Below the pieces are notes generated by a model. The model was not told the DNA's origin, searched no databases, and saw only the letters and a program-made list of their open reading frames with translations. 64,000 nt of DNA, taken from assembly GCA_019429145.1 (NCBI GenBank), contig JAHYJI010000003.1:47-64046 (forward strand), read 5' to 3'. Position numbers and translations under genes: made by a program. Each line of letters begins with the position of its first letter. Positions within the stretch are counted from its first letter, which is position 1. Below are positions 14,233-41,350 of this stretch, in pieces. This DNA comes from Coriobacteriia bacterium. Lineage in GTDB: Bacteria > Actinomycetota > Coriobacteriia > Anaerosomatales > SLCP01.

Positions 14233-16794
<2,562 letters not shown>

Positions 16795-16815
16795 GGCCGG
16801 TCGGGCGGGTGACGC

Positions 16816-17295: not shown

Positions 17296-19890
<2,595 letters not shown>

Positions 19891-22157: not shown

Positions 22158-22159
22158 CG

Positions 22160-22950
<791 letters not shown>

Positions 22951-22954
<4 letters not shown>

Positions 22955-24144
22955 ACCTCCTCGAGAGCATGCGCATCGCGCTGCGCGCTCTGAACGCCAA
23001 CAAGGTCCGCAGTGCGCTCACCATGCTCGGTGTGATCATCGGCGTTGCCGCGGTCATCCTCCTTGTGGCGATCGGCACGGGCGTGCAGGACGAGATCACC
23101 GGATCGATCGAAGGTCTGGGGTCCAACCTCATCTTCGTCTTCCCGGGTAGCTTCGAGGAAGGCCCGGGCGGAGGAGGTCCGGGGGGCATCTCAACCAGGC
23201 AGTTCACGATCGAAGATGCCGACCTCCTCCAGCGTCGACTGGGCCCGGAGCATGCGGTTGCTCCCGTGCTCCAGGGACCGCTCACGTTGCGTGTGGGCAA
23301 CCGCACCATGAGGACGGTCGTGGCCGCTGCCAACGAGAACGCAGGCGAAGTCTTCGGCGGCGACTATCTGGACGGCCGCGGGTACCGCCGCAGCGAGGTG
23401 TCCGCAGGCGCGAGGGTTGTCATCCTCGGGTCGACGGTGCGAGACCGGCTCTTCCCGAACCAGGATCCGGTCGGAGAGACGATGAGCGTGAACGGCCAGC
23501 GCTTCACCGTCATCGGTCACTTAGCAGCGCAGGGGGGCTCGCTCACGGGCGATCAGGACAACCAGGTCTACATGCCTATCACCGCAGCCCAGCGCCTGAT
23601 CGGAACGACCGATGTCGGCCTGATAGCGGTCAAAGCGGCTACCGCCGATGACGTCGAGGCCCTTCAGCGGAGGATCAGGCAGGTGCTGACCCCGCGGTTC
23701 GGAGACGAGTTCAGCGTCTTCTCGCAAGACCAGACGCTCGGCATATTCCAGCAGATCCTCGGTACGCTGACCTTCATGCTCGCCGGCATCGCCGGCATAT
23801 CGCTGCTGGTCGGCGGCATCGGCATCATGAACATCATGCTGGTGAGCGTCAGCGAGCGCACGCGGGAGATCGGCATCCGCAAGGCTGTCGGCGCCCGAAC
23901 CTACGACATCATGAGCCAGTTCGTCATCGAGGCGGTGACGCTGTCGGTGGCAGGCGGAGTCGTGGGAATCGCGATAGGGGCGCTCGGCGCCCGGGTCCTC
24001 ACCCAGTGGGTGCCGACCGAGGTGACGGCGTGGGCAGTGGCTCTCGCGTTCACGTTCTCGGCGGGAGTCGGGATCTTCTTCGGCGTGTATCCGGCGTACA
24101 AAGCTTCGAGGCTCGACCCGATCGAGGCACTGCGGTACGAGTAG
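22951..24144 (+). CDS. ABC transporter permease (MacB/FtsX-type)
   Basis: 397 aa with MacB_PCD-like extracytoplasmic domain and C-terminal FtsX motif [14 protein letters not shown]. Overlaps the ATPase gene by 4 nt. Confidence 0.9.
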
Positions 24145-24868: not shown

Positions 24869-24945
24869 GGGCCCGTAGCTCAGTTGGTTAGAGCGCACGG
24901 CTGATAACCGTGAGGTCGTTGGTTCGAATCCAACCGGGCCCACCA
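24869..24945 (+). tRNA. tRNA-Ile (anticodon GAU), CCA encoded
   Basis: Hand-folded cloverleaf. Acceptor GGGCCCG/CGGGCCC, D arm GCTC-AGTTGGTTA-GAGC, anticodon arm CACGG-CTGATAA-CCGTG, T arm GTTGG-TTCGAAT-CCAAC, then ACCA. Confidence 0.9.
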
Positions 24946-25683
24946 TCAAGAACCAGTTCAGGCGGGGCACTCGCCCCATCTGTTTCTGTCGAGAGACAGA
25001 CGTCGTTCGAGATCAAGCCGCCATCCATCACGCGCCGGGCTCACGGTCGAAGCAACCCCTCGACGCTAGATACTCGGCGAACCGCCTGTCCGCGTATCCT
25101 ATGCGGTCGCAGAGCCAGGTGGTCACAAGGCCGCCATCTCGTCTGAGGCATCCTCGAATACGATCGCGTCATGGAGTTCATTGGCGAGCGCAGCCTCAGG
25201 TCTCGGCTGTGAGGCCTCAGTCTGGTTCGACGGTTCACGTTCGAAGAGACCCAGCACGAACTCGCCGAGTTCGACGAATCTCCCCGGCTCCAAGCCCGGT
25301 CAGTTCCCGGAACTCAGGTTGTCGCATACCGATCACGCAGGCGAGGAACAGCGGGGCGACAAAGCGGTGGTCCGCGGGCGGCTGCGCACAAGGTCGACGT
25401 AGAGCATCTGATGCGCCGCGCTGGTTCGTCGAGGCTCAGATTAGCGAAGCCTTCGGCAAGCACGATCTTCGCCATTCGTCATGGCGTCTAGGAGAGGACT
25501 TCGGCGGAATCCACACAAGTGCCACAACCCATCTGGGTATATAGGTGGAGTTGAGCGTGAAAAACTCAAGTTCTGCGCATAGCCGACAGCCAAACGTGGC
25601 TGAGGTCAAGATTGAGGCGATTCCCGGTGCGCGTACAGATTGTTCGTGCCCGCAGACCGAAACACAGATCTCGAGTTCTAAGA

Positions 25684-28600
25684 ATGCGTAAGGGTCCAGC
25701 CACAGTCTGGTTGCTGGTGGCGGTCTTGCTGCTCGGTCAAGTGTCGGTATTCCCCGCCTCGGAGGCCAGCGCATCCGAGCGTTCGTTCGCTGCGGGGTCG
25801 CTCATCATCCCGATGGACACCACCTACCAAAACTACGGTATGTGGAAGGCGTACGGCCTTGTCAACGAGTTGCTGCTTCACGGCATTCCGGTTGCCTGGG
25901 CGATCGCGCCCGACAAGAGCTTTGGCGGGATAGACTTCACCGCCACGACGCAGGATTACCGGACCGCCGCCGGCCCAACCACCGTCAACTACACCGGCGG
26001 GCCGTTCATCATCGAGGCCGCCTTTGCCGCGCAGGCGCAGCCGATCATCCAGGCGTGGTGGGCGAAGTACGCCAACCAGCCAACGGTGCATGAGGCGACC
26101 AGTCCGTTCACGGCGAACGTTGACATCGTCCTCAAGAGCCCGCCCAGGATCGCGCTCGAGGCGACCAACGCGAATATCGCCATGGCCTACTTCAACGCCG
26201 CCGGCATCACGGACTTGGATGGCAACGCGTGGACGACCGCGTCGCCGAATGTCCTGGACCAGCTTGAGATCGTCAACGGTGGGCTCTTCACGCAGGGCGA
26301 CTGCTCGCAGCGCAAGTTCGATATCTTCGTGACGCCGCACAACGGCGGCTACAGCTACTCGCTCACCGACCCCCTCAACCTCGGCACGCGGACGTACGCG
26401 CAGCTGGACTACTTCGTGAATCAAGGCGGCGGCTGGCTCGCGCTGTGCCACTCGATACTCAGCAACGAGAACGCCATCGCCGACCTGTACAACAACAGCA
26501 GCCCCGCCGTGCGTTCCCTGTTCACGGCGAGCGGGGGCGGCGGCTTCCTGACACGGACGGGTTTCACCACCATCGCGAACAAGGCCGGAACCTGGACGGT
26601 CGGCGAGCCTGAGCTCCCGCTCGCGCAGGCGGTGCCCACCACGGTGCTGCAAGCGCTGCCGGGCGGCTCCGTGCAGACGTGGGACCGCACGAGTGTGAGC
26701 TACTTCGACCAGACCGAGCGGGTCGCAAGCTTCATCACTCCCACGAACACCTACGACTGGGCGATCAACGGCGTCGCGCACGACGGCACCACGCTTGGCA
26801 AGGTGACGTTCCTGGGCGGCCACTCCTACGCCACGTCGTTGCCGTACACCTCCAACTACGAAGCGCCGTACCTGCGCTTCTTCTTCAACGCGCTCTTCTT
26901 CAACGGCGGTGCGGTGGCCAAGCTGGATCTGGCCGTGACGTCTCAGGACATCCCGCAGGGCCTGACGTCCGTGGTGGTAGTCAGCCTTCTCAATACGGGC
27001 TCGAGCGTGGCGGAGGGCACGCAAGACGTCACCATCCGGCTGCCGCAGGGCGTCACGTACGTTGAGACGGTTGCGGGTTACCCCGCGCCGCTTTCGGTCA
27101 CGACGGACCCGGTAACGAACGCCACTGTGCTCACATGGGGCAGCTCGTTGGGGAACATCCCGGGCGGGGAGACTGCCACGCAGATCAGGGTCAGTCTGAC
27201 GCCGGACACCCTCGGCGATACCTACTGCGCTCACCTCGACGCGCGATATGGTGACGTCTACGGAGAGTCGTTCACGGCCAGCCTGTGCAGGACCGTGAAC
27301 GTCTATCCGGCCGCCGACCTTGAGATCACCAAGACGCTGAACGCCCCCAGCAGCGAGATGTACGCGGGGTCGCTTGCCGAGTGGACCCTCTCCTTCCGCA
27401 ACACGGGTGATGCGGACCTGCTCGACGGCGTTGTGGAGGACCTGCTGCCTCTGGGGTACGCCTACAAGAGTTCGTCGCTCGCGCCCTCGAGCGTACTGCA
27501 GCAGCCTGACGGCACCACGCGCATCAGATGGAACGTGGGGACGGTCGTCGCCAAGGCGGGCGCCCGGACGATCACGATGTCAGCGTTCGCGCCAAGTGAC
27601 CCCGGGCAGTACACCAACACCGTCACCCTCACGGGACCGGACTGGGCCGGTTTCCTGTACCAAGCCTCCGCGGCCTCCGATGTGGAGGTCATCCCACCAC
27701 CCATCCAATTGCGGAAGTCGGTCTCCCCGGAAGGCGACGTGGAGGTCACCACGCCCGGTCAGGTGCTGACCTACACGCTGCGGCCGCACTACTCGGGCGC
27801 GTATCTCCTGCAGAACGCGCTGGTCTCGGACGCAACGCGCGCCTACACCACCTACGTTGCGGGCAGCGCGAACGCAGGGGGGACGCTGGGGTTCACGCCG
27901 CTGCCCGAGGAGGACGGCGATGACGCGGAGATGCGGATCGCGCTGACCGCCAGCCCCACAGCGGTGCCGCTGGGCGGCGAGGTCACCGTCACCATGACCT
28001 TGACCAACAAGACCGGCACGGCACGGACACTGGACCTGTCCGTCTTAGAGGCGCTGGACGGAGCGACCCTCACCGGCCCGACCAGTGCGACCGTGGCGGC
28101 GAACTCGACATTCACGCTCACCTACACGGCCACGATGACGTCCATCGGCGAGCGTGTGTTCGAGGCGCAGGCGGAGAACGTGACCCTCGACTACAGCTCG
28201 CATGTCGCTCTCTCGAACACCGTACTGGTGACGAGCCACCTGAACGCATCGCCCTCGAACGACGTCGTCACGTGGCGCCTGGGGAGCAACACGCCTCCGG
28301 TGCCCGGCGAGACCATCCTCACCGGCTATCCGGCCGGTGTGTATGCGTTCCGGGGCGGGAACAAGAAGGAGTTCTCGAAGTACCGGCAGGCGACTGACGT
28401 GTGGCAGTTGGAGGCGCAGCCCACCAACGGCATCGAGAAGGGCGGCGCGCTCACGGTCGACAGCGCCACGGGAACCATCTACGCCAGCGAGGGCAACTCG
28501 AAGTGGTTCTACGAGTACAGCATCACCACGAACACCTGGACCCGCTTGACCGATGCTTCCGCGAACTTCAACGAGGGCGGAGGGATCCAGTTCCTGCAGG

Positions 28601-30849
28601 TGGGCGGCGTGAAGTACGTCTTCGCCGTGCTGGGCAACGGCACCGCCTTCAGGCGCTACAACATCGCCACCGACAACTGGACCAACCTGGCCAACGTGCC
28701 GGTCACCGTCAAGCGCGGCGGTGCGATCACCACCGACGGCACGTATCTGTACGTCCTGCAGGGCGACGGCAAGAAGGGCTTCTACCGCTACGACGTGAGC
28801 GCCAACACGTGGACCGCGATGGCGCCCACGCCCGCCAATGTCAGCTGGGGAGGCGCGCTCACCAGCGTGGACACCAACGGCGACGGGGCGATCGACTCCA
28901 TCTACGCGCTGCAGGGCGACGGCAAGACGGGCTTCTGGCGCTACAGCATCGCCACCAACACGTGGACGGCGATGGCGGTGACCCCTGGTGCGGTCAAGGC
29001 CGGCGGCGCACTCACCAACGACGGCCAGTACATCTACGCGCTCCAGGGAGGCACGGCTCTGTTCTGGGGCTACTCCGTCGCGGACAATGCGTGGACGGCA
29101 CTCCAGCCGACCAACTTCACCGGGTCGGTGGGAGAAGGCGGTGCGCTCGTCTTCGATCCCGGCGTGAGCCCCACGGGCTATTTCACGCAGATGAGCGCCA
29201 GCGCAGCGCTCATCACGTCCGAGGAGACCATCACGGTCCAGCTGGCGGCCTCATCGTCGTACAGCGTGGGCGGCGTCGTCCCCGGTCCGATGACGATCAC
29301 CTCGACGGGGGGCGCTTCCGCGGTCCTCGTGAGCGGCCCGACACTGGTCAGCGCGGACGATCATACGAGTGGCATCAGCGACTACGTCGTCTACGAGTGG
29401 GTCTACCGTGGCATGGCGGGGTCGGGCCCCGGCACCCTCACCTTCGTCGCCGGGGCCACGGGCACCAGCCCGGACTCGACGTTCCCGGAGGCGAAGACGC
29501 TCGGGATCATCGTCTCTCCGGAGCTGACGTTTCAAGTGCGGGTGTTCGACGCGGACCAGGTCCCCGACTACGAGACCCAGATTGTGAACACGGGCATGAT
29601 CAGCGACCGTGCTGCCCTCGGCTACGGACTTAACTCCAACGCGGTGACGAACATGCTCATCAGGCCCCGGCTGAGCATCGCCAAGTCCAACGACCCCATG
29701 GGCCTGGTGCATCAGGGTGATGAGATCACCTATAGGGTCGTCATCAGGAACGACGGGACCGGCCCTGCGCACAACATCGTGATCACTGACCCGATACCGC
29801 AGTACACGACCTACGTGCCGGGAAGCGCGGCGATCCAGAGCACGGACGTGCAGAGCGTCGGTCAGGTGACGGAACCGGCAGATCCGGGCAGTCCGCTTCT
29901 GGCCACGCTGGACAGGCTCGGCTCCGACCAGTCCGCAACGCTCACGTTCCGCGTGCGTGTCGACGACGGTCTTTCGCCGGGCTCCTACCAGATCCCCAAC
30001 ACGGCCACCGTGACGGCGGCCATCGTACCGCCGCTCACCAGCAACACCGTCAACAACCAGGTCGACGTCGTGCCGTCGTTCTCCCTCGAGAAGATCGCAA
30101 GCGTCGAACGGGTCACCAATGTCGGCGAGGCCATCGAGTACACGGTCCTCGTCACCAACACCGGCGACGCGGCGTTGCACAACCTCACCGTCAATGACCC
30201 GATGCTGCCCGGCCTCGCGCCTGTCCTGGGTACCGACGCGGTCCACAACGTCGGCGACATCGACAACGACGGCGTCCTCGACGTGATGGAGATGTGGTAC
30301 TTCACCGGCAGCTACACCGTGACCGAGTCGGACATCGACAACGGCCCTGAGGGCTACACGATGCTCACGAACACGGTCACCGCGGACACCGACGAGACCG
30401 ACCCCGAGACGGCCTCGGCCGATGTGATGCTGGACATCGCGTTCTCGTCGCTCACCATCGCCAAGAGCGTGCTCCCCGGGGCCGGCTACGACACCCCGGA
30501 TCAGGCGACCCCGTTCATCATCCGCGTCGTCAATGAAGAGCGGGGCTACTCGACGGACGTGGTTCTCACCGACGGACAGGCCGTGGAGGTCATGGCCCCC
30601 AGGGGCACCTTCTCCATCAAGGAGATCGCGGTCCCCGTGGAGTACCGTCTGACCGGCGACGTCACGGTCACGCGGTACGTGGACGGAGTGCCGCAGGAGT
30701 CATTCGCGCTCGGCAGCGACAGCCTTCTGGACGTCCAGCCGGGCAGCGACTACCGGGTGACCTTCACCAACCGGTTCGAGCACCTTCTGTACTTCCACAG
30801 CTCCTCGCGCGCCGTGAACACGTTCGCGCCAGGAGGGGTGCTGCCATGA
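25684..30849 (+). CDS. Giant secreted surface protein: signal peptide, ~440-aa N-terminal domain, DUF11-type repeats, six-bladed Kelch-like propeller, more DUF11 repeats, C-terminal prealbumin/SpaA-like domain; no anchor
   Basis: Start moved to Met25 (MRKGPATVWLLVAVLLLGQVSVFPASEASA|SE, Sec signal). DUF11-like units: LEITKT...FRNTGDADL...YTNTVTLTG, LSIAKSNDP...VIRNDGTGPAHNIVITD, FSLEKIASV...LVTNTGDAALHNLTVND. C-terminus ...VTFTNRFEHLLYFHSSSRAVNTFAPGGVLP has no LPXTG or TM segment. Confidence 0.85.
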   Translation: MRKGPATVWLLVAVLLLGQVSVFPASEASASERSFAAGSLIIPMDTTYQNYGMWKAYGLVNELLLHGIPVAWAIAPDKSFGGIDFTATTQDYRTAAGPTTVNYTGGPFIIEAAFAAQAQPIIQAWWAKYANQPTVHEATSPFTANVDIVLKSPPRIALEATNANIAMAYFNAAGITDLDGNAWTTASPNVLDQLEIVNGGLFTQGDCSQRKFDIFVTPHNGGYSYSLTDPLNLGTRTYAQLDYFVNQGGGWLALCHSILSNENAIADLYNNSSPAVRSLFTASGGGGFLTRTGFTTIANKAGTWTVGEPELPLAQAVPTTVLQALPGGSVQTWDRTSVSYFDQTERVASFITPTNTYDWAINGVAHDGTTLGKVTFLGGHSYATSLPYTSNYEAPYLRFFFNALFFNGGAVAKLDLAVTSQDIPQGLTSVVVVSLLNTGSSVAEGTQDVTIRLPQGVTYVETVAGYPAPLSVTTDPVTNATVLTWGSSLGNIPGGETATQIRVSLTPDTLGDTYCAHLDARYGDVYGESFTASLCRTVNVYPAADLEITKTLNAPSSEMYAGSLAEWTLSFRNTGDADLLDGVVEDLLPLGYAYKSSSLAPSSVLQQPDGTTRIRWNVGTVVAKAGARTITMSAFAPSDPGQYTNTVTLTGPDWAGFLYQASAASDVEVIPPPIQLRKSVSPEGDVEVTTPGQVLTYTLRPHYSGAYLLQNALVSDATRAYTTYVAGSANAGGTLGFTPLPEEDGDDAEMRIALTASPTAVPLGGEVTVTMTLTNKTGTARTLDLSVLEALDGATLTGPTSATVAANSTFTLTYTATMTSIGERVFEAQAENVTLDYSSHVALSNTVLVTSHLNASPSNDVVTWRLGSNTPPVPGETILTGYPAGVYAFRGGNKKEFSKYRQATDVWQLEAQPTNGIEKGGALTVDSATGTIYASEGNSKWFYEYSITTNTWTRLTDASANFNEGGGIQFLQVGGVKYVFAVLGNGTAFRRYNIATDNWTNLANVPVTVKRGGAITTDGTYLYVLQGDGKKGFYRYDVSANTWTAMAPTPANVSWGGALTSVDTNGDGAIDSIYALQGDGKTGFWRYSIATNTWTAMAVTPGAVKAGGALTNDGQYIYALQGGTALFWGYSVADNAWTALQPTNFTGSVGEGGALVFDPGVSPTGYFTQMSASAALITSEETITVQLAASSSYSVGGVVPGPMTITSTGGASAVLVSGPTLVSADDHTSGISDYVVYEWVYRGMAGSGPGTLTFVAGATGTSPDSTFPEAKTLGIIVSPELTFQVRVFDADQVPDYETQIVNTGMISDRAALGYGLNSNAVTNMLIRPRLSIAKSNDPMGLVHQGDEITYRVVIRNDGTGPAHNIVITDPIPQYTTYVPGSAAIQSTDVQSVGQVTEPADPGSPLLATLDRLGSDQSATLTFRVRVDDGLSPGSYQIPNTATVTAAIVPPLTSNTVNNQVDVVPSFSLEKIASVERVTNVGEAIEYTVLVTNTGDAALHNLTVNDPMLPGLAPVLGTDAVHNVGDIDNDGVLDVMEMWYFTGSYTVTESDIDNGPEGYTMLTNTVTADTDETDPETASADVMLDIAFSSLTIAKSVLPGAGYDTPDQATPFIIRVVNEERGYSTDVVLTDGQAVEVMAPRGTFSIKEIAVPVEYRLTGDVTVTRYVDGVPQESFALGSDSLLDVQPGSDYRVTFTNRFEHLLYFHSSSRAVNTFAPGGVLP
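28336..29200 (+). repeat. Six tandem ~45-50-aa Kelch-like repeats inside the giant CDS
   Basis: Repeating GGA(L/I)T..dg..(I/L)YA(L/S)(Q/E)G.g...F.RY.i.TNTWT....P. Examples: GGALTVDSATGTIYASEG..., GGAITTDGTYLYVLQGDGKKGFYRYDVSANTWTAMAP, GGALTNDGQYIYALQGGTALFWGYSVADNAWTALQP. Confidence 0.7.
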
Positions 30850-31535
30850 CGTCCAGAGGCCGCCATCCCGTGAGCGTTCGTGTGGTCGCCCTGGGCGCCG
30901 TCATGCTCGTGCTGGGGGCCGGCTTCGCGTACGCCGTGATTGCCAGCCGTGCACTCAACACGGTGACCACGCCGGCGCTCACGGTGGCCGTCGAGGAAGG
31001 AACCGATGGTGAGCACTACGAGGGATGGACCGACCCCGGCACCCAGTGGGGTGCGACGGTTCCCAAGTACGTCCGCTTCACCAACACCGGCCAGGCCCAC
31101 GTGGTCATGCGCGTCAGCTACGCACAGGCGTGGACGCTCGAGACCACCGAGGGCGGCGTTCCCGTCACGAAGCAGCTCAGCAACACCTACCGGACGGAGA
31201 CGGCCGAGTACGCGGTCGCCACACTCGACTGGACGTCTGCCGGCCTTCTCAACACCGACCTGTGGTTCGACGGCGGTGACGGCTGGTACTACTACCGGCA
31301 CGTGTTGGCGCCGGGCGAGAGCTCTGACGCCGTGCTGGCTTCGGTGACCTTCGTGGAGCCGGCACCGTACGGGTACGACGGTGCCGAGTACCAGCTCCGC
31401 TTCATCACCGAATCCTGCCAGTACAGCACGAACCTCCTGAACAAGAACCAGGAGGCGGTCTGGACGACGTTCGGCATGACCTACGAGGAAGTCGGCGGGG
31501 CGCTGGTCTGGAGCCAGACCGCGCCGGGCGTGTGA
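30846..31535 (+). CDS. TasA/camelysin-like SipW-dependent exported protein, paralog 1
   Basis: 229 aa. N-terminal VVALGAVMLVLGAGFAYAVIAS, core VPKYVRFTNTGQAHVVMRVSY, GGDGWYYYRHVLAPGES and YQLRFITESCQ. The ATG overlaps the stop of the giant gene (ATGA). Confidence 0.7.
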   Translation: MTSRGRHPVSVRVVALGAVMLVLGAGFAYAVIASRALNTVTTPALTVAVEEGTDGEHYEGWTDPGTQWGATVPKYVRFTNTGQAHVVMRVSYAQAWTLETTEGGVPVTKQLSNTYRTETAEYAVATLDWTSAGLLNTDLWFDGGDGWYYYRHVLAPGESSDAVLASVTFVEPAPYGYDGAEYQLRFITESCQYSTNLLNKNQEAVWTTFGMTYEEVGGALVWSQTAPGV

Positions 31536-31564
31536 GCGCCGGGCAGCAAGGGGCGAGAGACGCG

Positions 31565-32176
31565 ATGGGCAAGCACAGGAAATGCGGCAACAACTGGTTC
31601 ATGAAGCTGCTGCTGGCATGCTTCGTGGGCCTCACGCTTGCCGCGATCTCCTACACGCTCGCGTTCTTCACCGACGAGGGCTCGGCGGAGAACTTCATCA
31701 CCGCGCGGTCCCACAACGTGGCCCTTGTCGACCTCTTCGACAAAGGCCAGTTCACGCTTCCGGGCGACACCGTGCCCAAGGTGGTCTACATGCGCAACAC
31801 GGGTGGCGCAAAGGCCGTGATCCGGATGCGCCTGACGCCGTCGTGGGACCCGGCACAGGCGGGCGAGTACGTCCTCGACCCCGCGGTCGTGACCGTTCAC
31901 CTGGGCGAGACGGTGGCAAGCGACTGGACGTTCTACGACGGCTGGTACTACTACAACCACATCCTGGAGCCGGGCGACGCCACCGGCCATCTGGTGGAAG
32001 CGATCGAGCTGGGCGTGGTTGCTAACGACGCGCACGCCGCGGACTACTCGGGGGCTTCGTACACGCTGGACGTGGAGGGCGAGTCGCTCCGGGCGGACGC
32101 AACCCTGACGCAGGACGAGTGGAACATCGGCTTCCAGGTTGACGCGGGCACCGCGATCACCTGGCTGACACCCTAG
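31565..32176 (+). CDS. TasA/camelysin-like SipW-dependent exported protein, paralog 2
   Basis: From ATG 31565: MGKHRKCGNNWFMKLLLACFVGLTLAAISYTLAFFTDEGSAENFIT. Core VPKVVYMRNTGGAKAVIRMRL, YDGWYYYNHILEPGDA, YTLDVEGESLRA. Confidence 0.75.
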   Translation: MGKHRKCGNNWFMKLLLACFVGLTLAAISYTLAFFTDEGSAENFITARSHNVALVDLFDKGQFTLPGDTVPKVVYMRNTGGAKAVIRMRLTPSWDPAQAGEYVLDPAVVTVHLGETVASDWTFYDGWYYYNHILEPGDATGHLVEAIELGVVANDAHAADYSGASYTLDVEGESLRADATLTQDEWNIGFQVDAGTAITWLTP

Positions 32177-32184
32177 GAGGCGAC

Positions 32185-32691
32185 TTGAAGATCGTTGGCG
32201 GCGTCATCAACGTACTGACTGCACTCGCGTATGTGGTGGTGGTGTTCGTCCTCGTCATCGCGGCGCCGCTTGCGCTCGGCTACAACCCGGTGGTCGTGCT
32301 GAGCGGGAGCATGGAGCCCACCTACAAGGTGGGGAGCGTCATCTACTACAAGCAGGTGGCGTTCGACGACATCCAGGTGGGCGACGTCATCACCTACAAG
32401 TCCCGGGACGACGTTGGCAACGCGGTCACCCACCGCGTGCACGCCATCAACGAGGCCGAGCGGACGCTCACGCTCAAGGGGGACGCCAACCCCTCGCCCG
32501 ACCCAAGCGCGATCCCCTACGGAATGGTGCAGGGGGAGGTGATGCTGTACGAGCTGCCCTACGTCGGCTACATGGTCCAGTACCTGCGCAACTACTACTT
32601 CATTGCGGCGCTGTTCGTGGTGTTCGTCGCCAAACTGCTCTACGACCGGCTCTCAGGAGGCAAGGCAGATGCAGAAGAGGAGTCTCAATAG
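32185..32691 (+). CDS. sipW: Signal peptidase I, SipW/archaeal-ER type (S26B)
   Basis: 168 aa with N-terminal TM helix, catalytic VVLSGSMEPTYKVGS, VTHRV, LKGDANPSPD, and a C-terminal TM helix. TTG start 4 nt after AGGAGG (32175-32180). Confidence 0.85.
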   Translation: MKIVGGVINVLTALAYVVVVFVLVIAAPLALGYNPVVVLSGSMEPTYKVGSVIYYKQVAFDDIQVGDVITYKSRDDVGNAVTHRVHAINEAERTLTLKGDANPSPDPSAIPYGMVQGEVMLYELPYVGYMVQYLRNYYFIAALFVVFVAKLLYDRLSGGKADAEEESQ

Positions 32692-32824
32692 CAGCCGAGC
32701 CTCGCGTGTGGGGTCGCTGCTCCGGCAGCGCACCGTAAGGGGGGTGATGCGGGCGCACACGTGAGGATCGATCCATGGCACCAGACTGAACCGTATGCAC
32801 GAATGGACTGAAGGAAGGATCATC

Positions 32825-33625
32825 ATGCGTAAGATCAAGAAGTCGCTGCCGCTGTTCGGCATGATCGCGCTGGTTGTCGCGATCGCCATCGGTGGCACCT
32901 TCGCCTACTTCTCCCAGACGGGAACGGCGGAGAACTACCTGACCACGATGACCTACGACTCGACCATCACGGAAGACTTCACCCCGCCGGCCGACGGCGC
33001 GTTCGCCCCGGACGTCGAGATCGACAAGGAGGTGGGCGTCACCAACACCGGCGAGATTCCGTTCCTCGTCCGCATCAAGTACGAAGAGGCTTGGAACGGT
33101 ACCCCCGTGTCGCTCACCTACGCCGACGCGGTCAACACCCCGTCGGGTTCGGAAGTCTGGATCTACGACGGCGACACCGAGGACGACTCGGTCGTCAAGA
33201 AGATCAAGTACGGCGAGACCGCCGGCTGGACCTACGGTGGCGACGGTTACTACTACTACCTGGCCGAACTGGATCCGGGCCAGACCGCGCCGAGCTTCAT
33301 CGACTCCATCATGCTGAAGGCGTCGACCGTCAACGAGGACACCAGCTGGGTGCTGACGTGGTGGGACGGCACCGCCGCGGACTACGTCGATGAGACCTTC
33401 ACGAGCCAGGGCGCAGTCGACGATCGCAAGGCTGCAATCATGCTCATGGAAGACGGATCGTATCTCGTCAACGTCATCGAGAACACGAAGACCACGCTCG
33501 ACATGGAGGGCGGCTACACGCTGACCTTCACGATGGAGACCGTCCAGGCCATCGAAGAGGGCGCGGATTCGTGGACGACCCCGACCGTTACAGACGTCAT
33601 TACGTTCCTCGGCGGCGTTCTGTAG
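32825..33625 (+). CDS. TasA/camelysin-like SipW-dependent exported protein, paralog 3 (candidate major subunit)
   Basis: From ATG 32825: MRKIKKSLPLFGMIALVVAIAIGGTFAYFSQTGTAENYLTT. Core DKEVGVTNTGEIPFLVRIKY, GGDGYYYYLAELDPGQT, YTLTFTMETVQA. It has its own 130-bp upstream gap and is followed by strong hairpins. Confidence 0.75.
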   Translation: MRKIKKSLPLFGMIALVVAIAIGGTFAYFSQTGTAENYLTTMTYDSTITEDFTPPADGAFAPDVEIDKEVGVTNTGEIPFLVRIKYEEAWNGTPVSLTYADAVNTPSGSEVWIYDGDTEDDSVVKKIKYGETAGWTYGGDGYYYYLAELDPGQTAPSFIDSIMLKASTVNEDTSWVLTWWDGTAADYVDETFTSQGAVDDRKAAIMLMEDGSYLVNVIENTKTTLDMEGGYTLTFTMETVQAIEEGADSWTTPTVTDVITFLGGVL

Positions 33626-33662
33626 TCAGCCCCTTAGGGGCTAGTCGCTCTTACGAGTGGTG

Positions 33663-33692
33663 GCACCCGGTGGCGCTTGCGCCACCGGGTGC
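33663..33692 (+). terminator. 13-bp perfect hairpin after paralog 3 (terminator/attenuator candidate)
   Basis: GCACCCGGTGGCG-cttg-CGCCACCGGGTGC, preceded by a smaller hairpin AGCCCC-tta-GGGGCT (33628-33642). No U-tract. The next gene starts 30 nt later. Confidence 0.55.
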
Positions 33693-33721
33693 GCCCCGGA
33701 AGATCCAGGAGGGGAGGTGCC

Positions 33722-35497
33722 GTGAACAACGCCTATCGACGCTCGATGACTGCAGCGCTGCTCGCGGCACTGCTCCTCGTCGCGCTTGGTGCTGCGCCCG
33801 TCGGGGCGTTAGCCGCAGTCGCCATACCCACCACCACCTACGATGGCTGGCGCGCGGACATGGACGGGAAACTGCTCACCGACAGCGAAGGCTACTACGT
33901 CCTCACGGTCACGCCCCAGATGGCGGCGGACGGCGACATCACGCTCCAGTGCAACCGATTCGCGCGGCTGTTCCTGAAGGACTTCCGCAACATCTCCAAC
34001 ACCGACACGACGTACAAGATGAAGATCGTCAACGCCAGCGGCAAGACGATCACCTACCGCGACTACGCGTTCACCACCCACAACGTGCTGCCCCGCACGG
34101 ACAACATCTTCGGACCCGCCACCGGCGCGATCACCGACTCGCCGGAGCTGGGCAGGGGGTTGGGCTCGGCCTATGCCGCGATGCTCCCCACCATCCTGAC
34201 CGCCGGGACCTATACCGACCTCTGCATCGACACGCAGGGGTTCGACGGCAATAACATGAACCTCATGATGGTGCCGCTCCGCTGCACGAACGACGCCATC
34301 TGTTCGTTCTACGGCGTGGACCACACGTTCGATGTCACGCTTCCCCAGATCATGCATCTCGACGAGAATCTCGCCGCGCGTGGCTACTCCAGCTACGCCC
34401 ACTACCTCAAGAGCTACTACGGCGTCGCCAGCCTCTCCAACCTGCCGCCGGCGACCGTGTACAACATCCTCGGCACCACCAACGGCGCACAATCCGCCAT
34501 CACCAACTGGCGTGACAATACCATCGGCGGGAAGCCCATCCCGGCCTCCGAGCTCGGTAGCCTGACGAACGAGTTCAGGATCTGGGGGCTTCTCCACCTC
34601 AACGGCGATTCCAGGGACGCGGCGCAGTATCCGTACGTCCCCAACTTCTTCATGATGGAGACCGATCCCGAGGTCCTCCAGCTGGCCTACGACTACCTGT
34701 ACACTGACGGTCTTCGCTTCAGCTTCGACCAACTCACCCAGCCGTTCGACACCACGGACAACGAGCACGGCCGCGGCGGCGACTTCGGCATCAAGGCGTA
34801 TGTGAACAAGAGCCCGGGCTCCACCGCCCACGTCAACAGCGTCTTCGGCGGCGTCACCCTGGCCGACGGCGATGAGCTGAAGCTCGACAACGTGACGGCG
34901 GGCCTCTACGTCCCCAACGCGTGGAACCAGTACCGCCTCTACGACTTCGGATTCAACCTTATCTTCACAACTGACGAGGTCTACACGCTCGCTATCACGA
35001 AGACCGGCCGGGACCTGAACGGCCCGCGGCTTGTTCCGGGCGACGTCATCGAGTGGCGGATCGTGGTCAGGAACACGGGTCCGACGGTGTTGACGAACGT
35101 CGAGGTCGTCGATGACGTCCCATCGACGACGGCGTACGTCCCGGGCTCGATCACCGGGCGCGGAGCTGATGATTCCGCGTCTCGACGCCTGCGATGGCTG
35201 GTGGGCACGCTGAACCCGGGCGAGTCGGTCACGCTCACCTTCCGGTCGACCGTCAACGCGGGCCTGCCCAACGGAACGGAGATCCGCAACCAGGCTGCGG
35301 TGCATTCCGATCAGGTCGGCTGGCGCTACTCGGACGATTCGAGCACGCCGATTCCCGGCGACGCCACGCTGCTGCGCACCGGAGGGAACGACTGGATATG
35401 GCTGGGCGTCACCGTGGCCGCAGTGCTGTTGGGGCTTGTGGCACTGCTGTACGGGTTGCTCCTGAAGCGCCGGAAGCGTAAGCAGGCATCGTCCTAG
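33722..35497 (+). CDS. Cell-wall-sorted surface protein: novel N-terminal region, C-terminal DUF11 domain, LLRTG sorting signal
   Basis: GTG 33722 follows AGGAGGGGAGG. Signal peptide TAALLAALLLVALGAAPVGALA. DUF11-like LAITKTGRD...VVRNTGPTVLTNVEVVDDVP. C-terminus ATLLRTGGNDWIWLGVTVAAVLLGLVALLYGLLLKRRKRKQASS. Confidence 0.8.
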   Translation: MNNAYRRSMTAALLAALLLVALGAAPVGALAAVAIPTTTYDGWRADMDGKLLTDSEGYYVLTVTPQMAADGDITLQCNRFARLFLKDFRNISNTDTTYKMKIVNASGKTITYRDYAFTTHNVLPRTDNIFGPATGAITDSPELGRGLGSAYAAMLPTILTAGTYTDLCIDTQGFDGNNMNLMMVPLRCTNDAICSFYGVDHTFDVTLPQIMHLDENLAARGYSSYAHYLKSYYGVASLSNLPPATVYNILGTTNGAQSAITNWRDNTIGGKPIPASELGSLTNEFRIWGLLHLNGDSRDAAQYPYVPNFFMMETDPEVLQLAYDYLYTDGLRFSFDQLTQPFDTTDNEHGRGGDFGIKAYVNKSPGSTAHVNSVFGGVTLADGDELKLDNVTAGLYVPNAWNQYRLYDFGFNLIFTTDEVYTLAITKTGRDLNGPRLVPGDVIEWRIVVRNTGPTVLTNVEVVDDVPSTTAYVPGSITGRGADDSASRRLRWLVGTLNPGESVTLTFRSTVNAGLPNGTEIRNQAAVHSDQVGWRYSDDSSTPIPGDATLLRTGGNDWIWLGVTVAAVLLGLVALLYGLLLKRRKRKQASS

Positions 35498-36112
35498 ATG
35501 AGCGGGTCGAGGGCCAACGGGTCCGGCTGGGTGCTGTTGGGCATCGCATTGCTCGTGTTCAGCGTTGCCGTTGCGGTATACAACCTGTGGCCGGACATCA
35601 CGTTCCAGGCCGGCCTGGTCGAGCCCTCGGTGCCGTACCCGTCCAAGTTCGCCGACGCGCCTGCGGGTGAGGTGCCGTCAGACGCCACTCAGGCGATCCC
35701 TGCCGAGCCGAGGGTCGTCATCCCCCGCATCGCCGTGGACGTACGCATCTACAAGGGCGATGCGCAACGGGCGCTCAAGCTCGGCGTGTATCACCACGCC
35801 GGGACAGCCGCCCCCGGGGAGCCCGGTAACATGGTCATCGCCGGCCACCGCAACAGGCGGCAGTTCGCGCCGCTGTCCTATCTCGAGAGCGGCGACGTGA
35901 TCCTGGTCTACTGGGATGGCGCCGAATACGGCTACAGGGTCACGCAGGTCTATCAGGTCGAGGCGGTGGAGACGTCGGTGCTTGCGCGGGGAGACACCGA
36001 GATGCTGACCCTCTATACCTGCACCCCGCGATTCCTGGGCAACAAGCGGACCGTCGTGGTGGCCGAGCCACTCACGGGCGTCCCCGAGGCAACTTTCGGA
36101 GACTCCCAGTAA
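35498..36112 (+). CDS. Sortase (membrane-anchored transpeptidase, class E/F-like)
   Basis: 204 aa with N-terminal TM helix, catalytic His in MVIAGHRN, Cys in MLTLYTCTP, and Arg in GNKRTVVVAE. Starts directly after the stop of the LLRTG protein. Confidence 0.85.
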   Translation: MSGSRANGSGWVLLGIALLVFSVAVAVYNLWPDITFQAGLVEPSVPYPSKFADAPAGEVPSDATQAIPAEPRVVIPRIAVDVRIYKGDAQRALKLGVYHHAGTAAPGEPGNMVIAGHRNRRQFAPLSYLESGDVILVYWDGAEYGYRVTQVYQVEAVETSVLARGDTEMLTLYTCTPRFLGNKRTVVVAEPLTGVPEATFGDSQ

Positions 36113-36120: not shown

Positions 36121-36149
36121 AGTGGTTCGAATCCACTCGGGCCCACCAT
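36121..36149 (+). repeat. tRNA 3'-end remnant (T arm, acceptor 3' strand, CCA) = att-like direct repeat of tRNA-Ile
   Basis: AGTGGTTCGAATCCACTCGGGCCCACCAT versus tRNA-Ile GTTGGTTCGAATCCAACCGGGCCCACCAT. The four differences keep the T stem paired (AGTGG/CCACT). No 5' half is present. Confidence 0.7.
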
Positions 36150-36160
36150 GAGACAACACG

Positions 36161-36186
36161 TCAGACGGGGTATCTGCCCCGTCTGA
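36161..36186. terminator. Hairpin after the tRNA remnant and after the convergent DUF1295 gene
   Basis: TCAGACGGGG-tatctg-CCCCGTCTGA, followed by TTGTGTTAT on the plus strand. Confidence 0.5.
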
Positions 36187-36243
36187 TTGTGTTATGCGGA
36201 ACTCCTCCGCTCCCGGATGTGGTCATGGACCGGCAGCTCCGCG

Positions 36244-37029
36244 TCAGCCGCCCTTGCGCCCGATCCACGGCACCAGCACCGGCGTCCGCCGCTTGTAGTC
36301 CTCGTACTCCTCGTGCCCGCCCCACTTCTCCTCGGCCTTCCTCTCCAGAAGAGGGATGCCGCTCACGCGCGTGAGCAGCAGGTAGACGAAGACCGGCGAT
36401 ACCAGAGTCGCGAGTTGCCAGCCGCGAAGAACGGGGAGCGCGATGAGCGCCACGCCGGTCCAGAGCACGATCTCGCCGAAGTAGTTGGGGTGGCGCGACA
36501 GCGCCCACAGGCCCGAGCTGATGAATGCACCTTCGTTTGCAGGTTGGGCCCGGAAGCGGCTCTTCTGGTAGTCCGCTACCACCTCGATCGAGAATCCCGC
36601 TGTCCACGCTGCCAGCCCCACGAGCATGAGGATGTCGACCCCGGCACGCGTCTGTGAGGTGACGGCGGCAAGCGCCGCTGCGAGCGTCAGGCTCACCCAC
36701 AGCCCCTGCAGCGTCCACGTCATAAGGAATCGGGCGAAGGAGCTCTTGAGCTCGTCGAAGCGGCTGTCTTTGCCGGATCGCAGGACGCGTCGGAACAAGA
36801 AGGTACCCAGTCGCCCTGCCCATACGAGCACGAGCACCAGCAGCAGCATGGAGCGCGCGTCGGCGTACGCGCTCGACGCGACAGCGAACACCATGACCGA
36901 GATGTACGTGAGGCTGCCGGTCAGGTCGTAGTAGCGCTCGGTGCGCATCACGTAGGAGGGGATGAAGACCACCCACTGCACGAGGAAGGCGAGCGCCACC
37001 CCGAGTGCGAACACCGGAACCCCGCCCAT
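36244..37029 (-). CDS. DUF1295 membrane protein (steroid 5-alpha-reductase/isoprenylcysteine methyltransferase-like fold)
   Basis: C-terminal 261 codons of the 418-aa ORF, from MGGVPVFALGVALAF... Multi-TM, with motif LSRHPNYFGEIVLW. An alternative ATG at 37068 exists. The upstream part of the ORF overlaps the SDR gene and is Arg-rich junk. Confidence 0.8.
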   Translation of the reverse strand: MGGVPVFALGVALAFLVQWVVFIPSYVMRTERYYDLTGSLTYISVMVFAVASSAYADARSMLLLVLVLVWAGRLGTFLFRRVLRSGKDSRFDELKSSFARFLMTWTLQGLWVSLTLAAALAAVTSQTRAGVDILMLVGLAAWTAGFSIEVVADYQKSRFRAQPANEGAFISSGLWALSRHPNYFGEIVLWTGVALIALPVLRGWQLATLVSPVFVYLLLTRVSGIPLLERKAEEKWGGHEEYEDYKRRTPVLVPWIGRKGG

Positions 37030-37052
37030 TACCTGTCCTGCCGCGTCCGCAC

Positions 37053-37820
37053 CTACGCTGACGTCCATCCCGCGTCGGTCGCCAGGACGGCTCCGTTGAT
37101 GCCCTTCGCCTCGTCGGAAGCGAGGAAGAGCGCGACGTGCGCGATGTCCTCGGGCTTGAGCTGCCACGGGATCATCCCGTACCACTTCTGCAGGCGCTCG
37201 CTTGCCTTCGGATCCATCTTCGTGGGGTCGACGCTCTGCATGATGTTGGTCTCGACCGCTCCGATCGCGATCAGATTGCACCGGATACCGTCGTGCGCGT
37301 AGATGTAGGCGGTGCTCCGGGTTAGGCCCTTGAGTGCATGCTTCGAAACGGTGTAGGCGGCACCCGCGGCCGCGCCTCCCTGTCCGGCGACCGAGCCGCT
37401 GTTGACGATGGACCCGCCGCCGCCCTTGATCATCTCCGGCACGGCCGCCCGTGTCAGGCACATCGGGCCGTACACGTTGATGCCCATGACCCTGTTCCAC
37501 ATCTCGTCTTCGAGTTCGGCAACGCCCTGGTTGAGGTCCATCACGCCTGCGTTGTTGCAGAGCACGTCGAGACGCCCGTAGGCGTCGACAGCACTGGCGA
37601 CGATGCGCTCGCAGTCCTCACGCTTCGAGACGTCGCCCTGCACCCCGACCACATCGCGACCCGCGTCGCGAAGCTCAGCGACTATGCCCTCGAGCGACTC
37701 CTGATTCCAGTCGGCTGCGACGATCTTTGCGCCCTGCGCCGAGAAGATCTGTGCCATCGATCGGCCCATACCTGAGCCTGCGCCGGTGATGATCGCAACC
37801 TTACCCTCGAGCGTCAACAT
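37053..37820 (-). CDS. SDR-family oxidoreductase
   Basis: From Met21: MLTLEGKVAIITGAGSGMGRSMA (TGxxxGxG), with catalytic YTVSKHAL (YxxxK). Confidence 0.85.
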   Translation of the reverse strand: MLTLEGKVAIITGAGSGMGRSMAQIFSAQGAKIVAADWNQESLEGIVAELRDAGRDVVGVQGDVSKREDCERIVASAVDAYGRLDVLCNNAGVMDLNQGVAELEDEMWNRVMGINVYGPMCLTRAAVPEMIKGGGGSIVNSGSVAGQGGAAAGAAYTVSKHALKGLTRSTAYIYAHDGIRCNLIAIGAVETNIMQSVDPTKMDPKASERLQKWYGMIPWQLKPEDIAHVALFLASDEAKGINGAVLATDAGWTSA

Positions 37821-37960
37821 GTCTCTCTCCCTCTTCCCGTGTTCGTCGAACATGCCGGTGTTCTTCCGTTCCAGAACCACAGTCCGAATACTTCCAGGCC
37901 GTCAATCTGGAATGTACCCCTCGCGAACCAGCGCGCCGACGCCTGCTGTCTCCTGCGCGG

Positions 37961-39166: not shown

Positions 39167-39167
39167 C

Positions 39168-39938
39168 CTAGGTGGTCTCCTCGGCCGGGGGCTCGGTGCG
39201 CGGTACGTACTTGATGCGCTTGGCGACGATGCGCAGTGCCTGGAAGTGGATGAGCAGCCAGGCCCGTGCCGACATCGGCCCGAAACGCAGGAAGGTCCTT
39301 ACGATCTGCCCGTCGGTCAGCGGGCGGGCACCGAGCGAGACCGCAGCCACGAGAAGGAGCGGACCCTTCACGTAGTCGAAAATGCTGACCGACAACCGCT
39401 CGGCAGGTTCGCTGACGTGGAACCGGTAGCGCGCATCCATCTCGATGAAGGGTGATACGTGGAACACCTTCACCTTCTCCGGTGAGCTGCGCCAGTCGTA
39501 CGGTGCCCCGCCGTTGTGCAGCAGGTAGTTGTGGTGATCGCCGAAGGTGTTCTGTACCTCCGCGAGAACGGCAATGGGCGTGCCGTCGGCGTGGAAGCAG
39601 TACCAGAACGACACCGGGTAGAACTTGAATCCGAGGACGCGCGGGAAGGTGAGCAGGCGCACGGGGCCACCCTCGAGATCGATGCCTGCGCGGGCGAGGG
39701 TGGCGTCGATCCAGGGACGCCAGGGCGAGCCGTCGCGTGGACCGTGGTCCTTCAGTCTCAGCGAGAAGAGATTCGGCCTGTCCACCGAGAAGAGCCTCAG
39801 CGACGCATCGAGGGCATCGAGTTCGTCGAGGTCCGCGTAGACGAAGTACACACCGTAACGGAACCGGTTGACGCGAGGGACCTTCCGCTCGTGAGCAACG
39901 GTCCCGACGTAGAGCGTGCTGTGCACCGGGGTTTCCAT
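39168..39938 (-). CDS. DUF1365 family protein
   Basis: 256 aa: LYVGTVAHERKVPRVNRFRYGVYFVYADLDELD... Usual partner of CFA synthase and FAD oxidoreductase genes. Confidence 0.85.
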   Translation of the reverse strand: METPVHSTLYVGTVAHERKVPRVNRFRYGVYFVYADLDELDALDASLRLFSVDRPNLFSLRLKDHGPRDGSPWRPWIDATLARAGIDLEGGPVRLLTFPRVLGFKFYPVSFWYCFHADGTPIAVLAEVQNTFGDHHNYLLHNGGAPYDWRSSPEKVKVFHVSPFIEMDARYRFHVSEPAERLSVSIFDYVKGPLLLVAAVSLGARPLTDGQIVRTFLRFGPMSARAWLLIHFQALRIVAKRIKYVPRTEPPAEETT

Positions 39939-39947
39939 GCCTGAATC

Positions 39948-41240: not shown

Positions 41241-41350
41241 GTGTTCCCCCGTCCGTTTGCGCGCACCGTCCCGTGCGCACCGGTCTCGGGTATATGTTCC
41301 CGAAGGAGGCGCTTGAAACCCGGGTGCCCGCGGGAAATGGAGGCTTCGAC

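Follow-up and report, generated by a model that had tools for sequence, protein, structure and literature searches.

A seven-gene cassette in the Coriobacteriia genome

We analysed a 64,000-nt stretch of DNA from a Coriobacteriia metagenome-assembled genome (MAG; GCA_019429145.1, contig JAHYJI010000003.1), called the window below; positions are those of the window unless another locus is named. At 25684-36112, the window contains seven tightly packed, co-directional open reading frames (ORFs) on the + strand. They encode a giant secreted protein, two small paralogous proteins (paralogs 1 and 2), a signal peptidase, a third paralog, a sortase substrate (referred to as the anchor) and a sortase (Table 1). 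A preliminary description made from the letters of the window had listed the same genes with their motifs, and every ORF and motif was recovered in its place.

Table 1. Coordinates of the cassette genes and of the features that flank or lie within them
Feature	Position	Strand	Basis
tRNA-Ile(GAT), probable integration target	24869..24945	+	ARAGORN; Rfam tRNA 78.5 bits
Left direct repeat, attL-like: tRNA 3' end and terminator-like hairpin	24920..24989	+	repeat search, alignment
Leader, ~700 nt, without credible gene	24990..25683	+	ORF, Rfam and plasmid searches
Giant protein, 1721 aa, Sec-type signal	25684..30849	+	ORF, Pfam
GGGW-x-A-x-CHS motif in N-terminal domain of giant	26425..26454	+	invariant in 6-ortholog alignment
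C-terminal tail of giant, YFHSSSRAVNTFAPGGVLP, proposed donor-strand mimic	30790..30846	+	ortholog alignment
Paralog 1, 229 aa, divergent BsaA-like, proposed first adaptor	30846..31535	+	TIGR04090 (under cut-off)
Paralog 2, 203 aa, proposed second adaptor or minor subunit	31565..32176	+	TIGR04090 (under cut-off)
Archaeal/ER-type signal peptidase I (S26B, Ser-His)	32185..32691	+	TIGR02228; SGSMEP, THRV, GDAN
Paralog 3, 266 aa, BsaA family, proposed major fibre subunit	32825..33625	+	TIGR04090, TIGR04088
Sortase substrate (anchor), 591 aa from GTG 33722	33722..35497	+	ORF, Pfam, motif, ortholog alignment
Sortase, 204 aa, N-terminal transmembrane segment	35498..36112	+	PF04203 105 bits; IAGHR (His), TLYTCTP (Cys)
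Right direct repeat, attR-like: partial tRNA-Ile 3' end and terminator	36123..36192	+	repeat search, alignment

The stop codon of the giant gene overlaps the start codon of the paralog 1 gene (ATGA, 30846-30849), as had been noted, and the two genes are predicted to be translationally coupled. An alternative GTG start of paralog 2 at 31532, which would give a protein of 214 aa, overlaps the paralog 1 stop codon, and the peptidase gene starts 9 nt past paralog 2. Paralog 3 is preceded by a 133-nt gap and has its own ribosome-binding site, GGAAGGA, 7 nt before the ATG. The anchor gene has an alternative ATG start at 33746, and its TAG is directly abutted by the ATG of the sortase gene. The right-hand repeat begins 11 nt past the sortase stop codon; within it, a strong bidirectional terminator hairpin (36160-36187) closes the operon. 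A 147-aa ORF in the leader (25101-25544) was considered as a regulator and rejected: it is Arg-rich, matches no family, has no homolog in other loci and is probably spurious. Rfam revealed no riboswitch or other regulatory RNA in the window, including the leader and the region upstream of paralog 3, or in seven homologous loci.

Three BsaA-like paralogs and a dedicated signal peptidase

The paralogs were compared with two NCBIfam models, TIGR04090 (BsaA family SipW-dependent biofilm matrix protein, cut-off 60 bits) and TIGR04088 (SipW-cognate signal, cut-off 19 bits). Paralog 3 scored above both cut-offs (125.6 and 29.1 bits, respectively), and an NCBI entry identical to it is already named BsaA family protein. 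It also gave an 18-bit N-terminal match to PF12389 (camelysin), a family carried by some of its relatives. Paralogs 1 and 2 matched TIGR04090 under the cut-off (47.3 bits, E 2.1e-12, and 53.4 bits, E 2.8e-14). Their orthologs in two other loci, L001 and L005, scored 53.4 and 40.1 bits for paralog 1, again under the cut-off, and 89.7 and 70.4 bits for paralog 2, above it. The signal model returned 13.6 bits for paralog 2 and no match for paralog 1. On sequence grounds, we assign paralogs 1 and 2 to the BsaA family as divergent members. The proposal that all three paralogs are SipW-cognate proteins therefore stands at the level of the models for paralog 3, while paralogs 1 and 2 belong to the same family with scores below the cut-offs.

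The motifs reported earlier as shared by the paralogs proved to be invariant columns in an alignment of 19 paralog orthologs from 7 loci. With residues counted from the predicted cleavage site, which in paralog 3 lies between GGTFA and YF, these columns are Ala(-1), Asn(+10), K-x5-N-x-G, R, W, DGxYY, PG and Y.L...E..Q. All three paralog families have Ala at -1, an aromatic residue at +1 (the exception being Arg in the L003 ortholog of paralog 1), Asn at +10, Glu or Asp at +23 and the Lys of K-x5-N-x-G. Asn(+10), the acidic residue at +23 and the Lys are kept in all ten orthologs of paralog 1, with Glu at +23, and in all eleven orthologs of paralog 2, with Asp at +23. In the wider family of paralog 3, the columns of its Asn37, Glu50 and Lys68 read NEK in 131 of 134 members. 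Mutagenesis in Clostridium perfringens demonstrated that BsaA polymers need N35, E56 and K74, and it was proposed that the N-terminal strand of one BsaA subunit enters the next and is then locked by an Asn-Lys isopeptide bond (Kivimaki et al., PMC11580942). The Asn/acidic/Lys set of the window paralogs resembles this triad in sequence, and the Glu-to-Lys spacing is 18 in both paralog 3 and BsaA. A homolog search gathered 931 family members, with no named C. perfringens entry among the 120 matches listed. An AlphaFold2 (AF2) model of paralog 3 has a mean predicted local distance difference test (pLDDT) score of 82, and residues 22-36 are disordered in it.

The peptidase gave 108.2 bits with TIGR02228 (cut-off 51.85) and 78.5 bits with the Bacillus SipW equivalog model NF046067, whose cut-off is 190; its closest solved relatives are eukaryotic SEC11C and SEC11A. 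Because the first model was passed, the SipW equivalog failed and the solved relatives are SEC11 proteins, the enzyme is classified by sequence as an S26B peptidase of the Ser-His type that is not an ortholog of Bacillus subtilis SipW, which agrees with the archaeal/ER-type assignment made earlier. We propose that it is dedicated to the cassette and is SipW-like in function. In some clostridial copies of the cassette, the anchor gene is followed by additional S26B peptidase genes (L003:12349-13668; L005:12548-13918; L007:11554-13029). There are two short ones in L003, while those of L005 and L007 encode proteins of 456-491 aa in which a long extension precedes the transmembrane segment and the peptidase domain at the N-terminus.

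The giant protein ends in a donor-like tail

The giant protein consists of a Sec signal, an N-terminal domain, CLIPPER/DUF11 and immunoglobulin (Ig)-like domains, a Kelch propeller, CLIPPER and CLIPPER_2 domains and a last domain that is weakly SpaA-like. Pfam found three stretches of DUF11 (now named CLIPPER, PF01345), which together gave 107 bits and exceed the gathering threshold, two DUF7507 (CLIPPER_2) domains and Kelch matches. Neither a sorting signal nor a SipW signal is present in the giant, as expected from its description as anchor-less. Its orthologs (1700-2113 aa, 48-54% identity) are found at this position in all loci that extend far enough.

At the very C-terminus, after the last Ig-like domain, the pattern F-x-H-x-x-Y-F-H-x6-N-x-F is invariant in giants from ten of ten distinct loci and is followed by 1-7 residues; residues between the fixed positions vary freely. 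Counted from the Tyr, position +1 of the tail is aromatic, +2 is Phe, +10 is Asn and +12 is hydrophobic. This is the register of the predicted mature N-termini of the three subunits, YFSQTGTAENYL, FFTDEGSAENFI and YAVIASRALNTV. A position-specific scoring matrix (PSSM) built from subunit N-termini only was run over six whole giants of 1700-2100 residues. It ranked the tail first in four of them and second in a fifth; in the sixth, the tail was not among the top four. We read the tail as a probable C-terminal donor strand that would plug the giant into the free groove of the first subunit, which is the most specific of our new predictions. Paralog 1 is the likely partner because its gene is coupled to that of the giant through the ATGA overlap, and we propose that the giant is the tip protein.

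Several further features of the giant were noted. Its ~430-aa N-terminal domain (residues ~30-440, 25771-27000) has no Pfam match and is highly conserved in six orthologs. The invariant motif of this domain, which extends to GGGW-x-A-x-CHS..SNE, resembles the nucleophile elbow of Cys-His enzymes, and to judge from the motif the domain could be catalytic and not purely adhesive. The Kelch region of the gene contains a 118-nt direct repeat (28750-29020, 74% identity, spacing 153 nt) that probably reflects adjacent propeller blades. In L021 and L023, the giant gene was called in several fragments, which may be due to frameshifts, assembly errors, decay or phase variation. A different BsaA cassette, L024, encodes a 1523-aa giant with a faint VWA match that, past a similar last domain, ends in ...GYHSEGNIVNEL; this hints that the donor-like tail may extend to BsaC-like proteins.

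The LLRTG protein and its sortase

The anchor protein is composed of a Sec signal, a head of ~380 aa (~33830-34981), a CLIPPER/DUF11 domain (~34988-35347; 59.8 bits, above the Pfam gathering threshold), the LLRTG motif (35369-35383), and a transmembrane segment with a hydrophobic stretch of ~24 residues followed by KRRKRK (35393-35482). The DUF11 and sortase calls of the preliminary description were thus borne out by Pfam matches in the giant, the anchor and the sortase. LLRTG is the sole credible sorting signal in the window. The close anchor family is small, with 23 clusters among 5.8 billion proteins. All 19 aligned members end in [LPIV][PL]xT[GS], a transmembrane segment and a K/R tail, the other 18 having LP[DRN]T[GS], PPKTG, PTPKTG, [VI]PKTG or VPETG where the window protein has Leu instead of Pro at position 2. 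Since every aligned member carries a sorting signal, LLRTG is a variant of an orthologous LPxTG signal. The CLIPPER domain between head and signal is found in the window anchor only. It is most like the CLIPPER domains of giants (37% identity over 100 aa with its own giant, 29700-30100, and 36% over 122 aa with the L009 giant) and may, by this similarity, have been copied from the stalk of a giant.

The head was modelled confidently by AF2 (pLDDT ~90, residues 40-420). HMMER identified 65 relatives of the head among 1.84 billion representatives. Distant ones sit within adhesins of ~900-2075 aa that have DUF7601, DUF5979, SpaA, FctA and Cna_B stalk domains. The head thus defines an uncharacterised domain family shared by the cassette anchors and these large adhesins. 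About a dozen polar residues are conserved in both groups (N104, T119, N121, D175, E313, D315, R332, D336, N399, R405 and D408) and suggest that the head binds a metal or a ligand or forms an internal isopeptide bond. A TasA-like acceptor domain in the anchor was sought and rejected on the basis of negative hhalign and maximum-sensitivity hmmsearch results; the N-terminus of the anchor (GW.DLDGN...GYYVL..P) resembles the subunit motif (W.yggDGyYYY..L.PG), but not significantly.

No sortase class model (A-F) reached its cut-off with the window sortase: class D gave 75-76 bits (cut-offs 140-165), class E 73 (160), class C 65.6 (160) and class F 26 (166). Its best match in PDB was a class C sortase (54 bits). 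The sortases tested from clostridial cassettes are class B enzymes (TIGR03064, 193-201 bits vs 153.75) and homologous to each other, and blastp of the window sortase against the sortases of other loci returned no match. According to these comparisons, an unrelated enzyme has replaced the class B sortase of the clostridial copies in the window cassette. Compared with its relatives, the Coriobacteriia copy therefore has three joint changes at its anchoring end, namely a non-orthologous sortase, Leu for Pro in the sorting signal and an added stalk domain, and we read them as a refitting of this end after transfer to a different envelope.

The cassette is conserved and lies in a probable tRNA-Ile island

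Further loci were found by exact-protein look-ups and by scans with an anchor profile (five loci on genome contigs and two on metagenome contigs). The synteny whose absence would have counted against the preliminary description was present: this string of genes recurs in at least ten other separate metagenomic loci (L001, L003/L004, L005/L006, L007, L008, L009/L012-14/L019, L020, L021, L022 and L023). The string consists of a CLIPPER/Kelch giant, paralog 1 (~235 aa), paralog 2 (~205 aa), an S26B peptidase, paralog 3 (~250-275 aa) and a protein of 460-500 aa, the anchor, whose gene lies directly 3' of paralog 3 in every locus with enough flank. A sortase gene is located just downstream or upstream of the cassette in all these loci except L003/L004. 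Identity to the window proteins is 48-54% for the giant, 41-50% for paralog 1, 39-49% for paralog 2, 42-50% for the peptidase, 45-55% for paralog 3 and 53-62% for the anchor head. The earlier label "actinobacterial" fits the host MAG, which is named Coriobacteriia, but all other taxon-named carriers of the cassette are Clostridia MAGs. We infer that the cassette reached its Coriobacteriia host by horizontal transfer.

The L023 cassette is flanked by a serine recombinase gene on one side and an IS66-family transposase gene on the other (68-1642, 13186-14658), an arrangement that fits mobility. Two other BsaA cassettes, L024 (10749-11447) and L025 (11317-12114), encode small proteins of 232 and 265 aa with ordinary signal peptides that end in PPPTG or PPNTG, and L025 also has a class B-like sortase; these small proteins are candidate minimal wall anchors for BsaA-type fibres.

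The left repeat comprises the last 26 nt of tRNA-Ile followed by a hairpin at 24961-24977. Its counterpart after the sortase gene is identical in 24 of the 26 tRNA nucleotides, including the specific acceptor stem, and the whole 70 nt are 76% identical. The likeness between the two copies starts exactly at the T-arm. A direct repeat of a tRNA 3' end is a classic signature of integration at that site. Because such a repeat bounds the cassette, we classify the region as a probable 11.2-kb tRNA-integrated island that contains the ~700-nt leader and the seven genes alone. The tRNA-flanked island recognised earlier was thereby confirmed, with its boundaries at tRNA-Ile and the repeat; tRNA-Ala, at 53236, is 17 kb away and is no island boundary.

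A proposed fibre and its alternatives

TasA/BsaA-type fibres are emerging as a matrix scaffold common to bacteria and archaea. Their capping, the loading of cargo onto them and their attachment to the cell are unsettled, and the role of TapA is debated; to our knowledge, the sortase encoded beside bsaA in C. perfringens has no known function. The system described here is real, conserved and horizontally mobile. With moderate confidence, we favour the reading that its genes form a single operon, carried in a tRNA-Ile island, which encodes a SipW-dependent, heteropolymeric fibre of the BsaA/TasA superfamily with a sortase-anchored partner.

In such a fibre, the three paralogs would be exported via Sec with a SipW-type signal anchor, and the S26B peptidase would cut past a (G)GTFA-type motif and so free a donor strand at the N-terminus, aromatic at +1 and with Asn at +10. 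This strand would enter the open β-sheet groove of a neighbouring subunit (donor-strand exchange) and might be locked there by an Asn-Lys isopeptide bond with Glu/Asp(+23) as a catalyst, in the manner reported for BsaA of C. perfringens. The proteins would assemble in the order of their genes. The C-terminal strand of the anchor-less giant would be inserted into paralog 1. Paralog 2 would in turn accept the strand of paralog 1, and paralog 3 that of paralog 2, with polymerised paralog 3 forming the shaft. The adjacent sortase would join the sixth protein covalently to peptidoglycan through LLRTG. In the weakest step of the scheme, the sixth protein would receive the fibre base or hold it by the head domain; we hypothesise that it is the basal acceptor. 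After transfer to the Coriobacteriia host, the cassette would have acquired another sortase, along with a variant sorting signal to match and an additional CLIPPER domain in the stalk. The order of tip, adaptor, major subunit and anchor had already been outlined in the preliminary description. It matches the models of haloarchaeal tafi (PMC11821415) and of AbpX fibres. No TasA-like domain was detected in the anchor, whose basal role is tentative.

A number of observations weigh against this scheme. Every subunit contact in it, from wall to tip, is one that we infer. The Asn-to-Glu spacing is 13 in paralog 3 and 21 in BsaA, and the equivalence of the triad to N35/E56/K74 is one of residue pattern and spacing. 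A TasA fold had been expected for paralog 3, but TasA was not among the Foldseek matches of its model, and no match came from a profile search against PDB sequences. The PSSM did not put the tail first in two of the six giants. For the anchor head, Foldseek found no significant match in PDB, hhalign assigned a probability of 7% to a match between the anchor and paralog 3 families, and BsaA-like hidden Markov models at maximum sensitivity gave non-significant matches only. BsaA oligomers in C. perfringens appeared to be anchored in the membrane and not in the wall (PMC11580942).

Some of the evidence bears on a different reading, namely that the modules are co-regulated and not physically joined: a matrix fibre that is released or membrane-tethered, a separate secreted giant acting as an adhesin or enzyme, and an independent sortase-anchored LLRTG adhesin. 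The head family occurs in classical LPXTG-type fibrillar adhesins with DUF7601, FctA and Cna_B domains. One of these adhesins, in L015 (628-5973), ends in PPQTG and adjoins its own sortase, and no BsaA-like gene is nearby; that sortase has a class B look by sequence, like the clostridial ones, and was not scanned against NCBIfam. As distant heads are found in sortase-dependent adhesins outside BsaA cassettes, the head is a surface-protein module in its own right and may be an independent adhesin module here. The lack of a detectable TasA-like domain in the anchor and of an adjacent sortase in L003/L004 points the same way, as does the finding that BsaA polymers were unchanged by srtB deletion in C. 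perfringens strain 13, which is without the LPXTG protein (Obana 2020, PMC7395162). However, unconnected modules would leave the invariant donor-register tail of the giant unexplained, and they sit poorly with the predicted translational coupling of the giant to paralog 1, with a gene order that is strict over at least ten loci and two phyla, and with a close anchor subfamily of 23 clusters that directly follows paralog 3 in every examined locus. We therefore consider separate modules unlikely, if clearly worth keeping in mind. A classical sortase-polymerised pilus, with the giant and/or the LLRTG protein as the covalent shaft and the paralogs as chaperones or matrix accessories, would account for the CLIPPER and SpaA-like isopeptide-type stalk domains and for the class C pilus sortases being the best solved relatives of the window enzyme. 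It is highly improbable and was rejected because a single protein has a sorting signal, so that there is no polymerisable pilin set. Moreover, the class C score is far under its cut-off, the sortase has no C-terminal transmembrane segment by inspection, orthologous cassettes use class B sortases, and the paralog family was shown to self-polymerise without a sortase (PMC7395162, PMC11580942).

The island, too, could be apparent: the cassette may have been inherited vertically and the tRNA-like fragment may be a decayed second tRNA gene, which would make the repeat coincidental. In line with this, neither an integrase or other mobility gene nor an integrase remnant was found in the island by gene families, by Pfam on short ORFs of the leader or by plasmid match, which also weighs against the island part of the favoured reading, and the GC content of the cassette (0.63-0.66) is near that of the flanks. 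A coincidence is nevertheless improbable in view of the near-identity of the fragment to the 3' end of the adjacent tRNA-Ile, acceptor stem included, its exact bracketing of the operon, the restriction of the other taxon-named carriers to Clostridia and the recombinase and transposase genes at L023. With integration at tRNA-Ile retained, the lack of an integrase and the flank-like GC content mean that the insertion is probably old or that the donor was likewise GC-rich.

A more far-reaching version of the fibre can be envisaged, in which it is fully covalent without a polymerising sortase, each junction, that of the giant included, being made by a donor strand and a self-catalysed Asn-Lys isopeptide bond and the base being attached by a housekeeping-like sortase. 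We regard this as possible, if on balance doubtful. If true, it would be a third route to covalent pili, beside sortase pili and non-covalent TasA fibres, and should the isopeptide lock hold at every junction, the strand-and-groove pairs could be used as orthogonal protein-ligation tags. The giant tail, if it functions as proposed, would be a natural "strand tag" that loads a protein unrelated to the subunits onto a TasA-type fibre. Two predictions follow from the favoured scheme: the 12-residue motif at its C-terminus should suffice for attachment of the giant to the fibre, and wall binding of the fibre should depend on the LPxTG-type partner. In this compact, conserved set of seven genes every role has a candidate, and the swap of sortase and anchor features would show how such a kit is adapted to a different envelope once it has been transferred horizontally.

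Comparison with known systems

A system of this kind has already been outlined in recent papers. Operons have been reported that combine BsaA/TasA genes with genes for LPxTG proteins and sortases; they contain several paralogs, which suggest heteropolymers, and an LPXTG bsaB-like gene lies beside srtB in most C. perfringens strains (Kivimaki et al., preprint, PMC11580942). Bacterial loci with LPXTG anchors and sortases, along with AF3 models of complexes between anchor and fibre, were described in the AbpX preprint (10.64898/2026.01.04.697558). The statement of the preliminary description that no sortase anchoring is known for such fibres was thus too strong; the link has been reported at the genomic level, and experimental anchoring is not yet demonstrated in the cited work, the srtB deletion in strain 13 being the one test so far and a negative one. 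What appears to be new is this particular seven-gene cassette, the donor-like tail of the giant, the triad-like residue set in all three paralogs, the LPxTG-type partner with a non-subunit head, and the setting in a tRNA-Ile island of a Coriobacteriia genome with a swapped sortase.

The closest counterpart, C. perfringens sipW-bsaA-bsaB-bsaC, shares with the window a SipW-type peptidase with a BsaA-family major subunit encoded directly after it, further BsaA-like paralogs, a large secreted accessory protein and a neighbouring sortase gene. The gene order differs, being giant, two paralogs, peptidase, major subunit and anchor in the window. BsaC is a 70-kDa VWA protein, whereas the window giant is a 1721-aa CLIPPER/Kelch protein with a C-terminal donor-like tail; BsaB is without the triad, which all three window paralogs appear to keep; the LPxTG-type protein of the window has a 380-aa head that is not TasA-like, unlike the C. 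perfringens system; and the host is a high-GC Coriobacteriia MAG. B. subtilis tapA-sipW-tasA (PMC9674648) and B. cereus CalY/TasA have in common with the window a SipW-type peptidase, SipW-cognate signals and the TasA superfamily, although sequence similarity to their TasA proteins is too low for direct detection. B. subtilis TasA fibres assemble by N-terminal donor strands (PMC9674648), which we propose for the window system too. B. subtilis TasA has no isopeptide triad and no sortase or LPXTG partner, with TapA as a nucleator and anchor, and the B. cereus CalY/TasA system is explicitly described as sortase-independent (PMC13082335).

The tafi and AbpX systems follow the same proposed line of tip, adaptor, major subunit and anchor with donor-strand joints and a dedicated signal peptidase I, the order and the peptidase having been proposed for haloarchaeal tafi (PMC11821415). 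In tafi, export is through Tat, and the membrane-spanning anchor TafF has a TafA-like N-terminal domain; the window system would use Sec and sortase anchoring, and its anchor lacks a detectable subunit-like domain. The tafi tip TafC gives an N-terminal strand, whereas the strand of the proposed tip in the window is C-terminal. Sortase pili of the SpaA, FctA and BcpA type also have a tip adhesin, a shaft and a wall-anchored base, the roles proposed in the window, as well as isopeptide-stabilised Ig-like stalk domains (CLIPPER, SpaA-like) and a sortase gene beside that of its substrate. They differ in that the shaft subunits of the window have neither a sorting signal nor a pilin motif, and polymerisation would therefore be sortase-independent. 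Unlike pilus sortases, the window sortase has a single substrate and would serve for anchoring only.

Neighbouring genes

The window adjoins the replication origin, with dnaA, dnaN, recF, gyrB and gyrA in canonical order at 10355-19890. Between gyrA and tRNA-Ile there are genes for a HAD hydrolase and an HlyD/ABC/MacB-FtsX efflux set (20649-24144). A run of lipid-modification genes on the - strand is convergent with the island (36244-41357) and encodes DUF1295, a short-chain dehydrogenase, a cyclopropane-fatty-acyl-phospholipid synthase-like methyltransferase, DUF1365 and an amine oxidase/FAD protein. Between the island and tRNA-Ala, also on the - strand, a 2938-aa ORF (42997-51813) contains GH94 supersandwich, GH94 catalytic and glucoamylase-like domains and resembles a giant protein of the cyclic beta-1,2-glucan synthase or glucan phosphorylase type.

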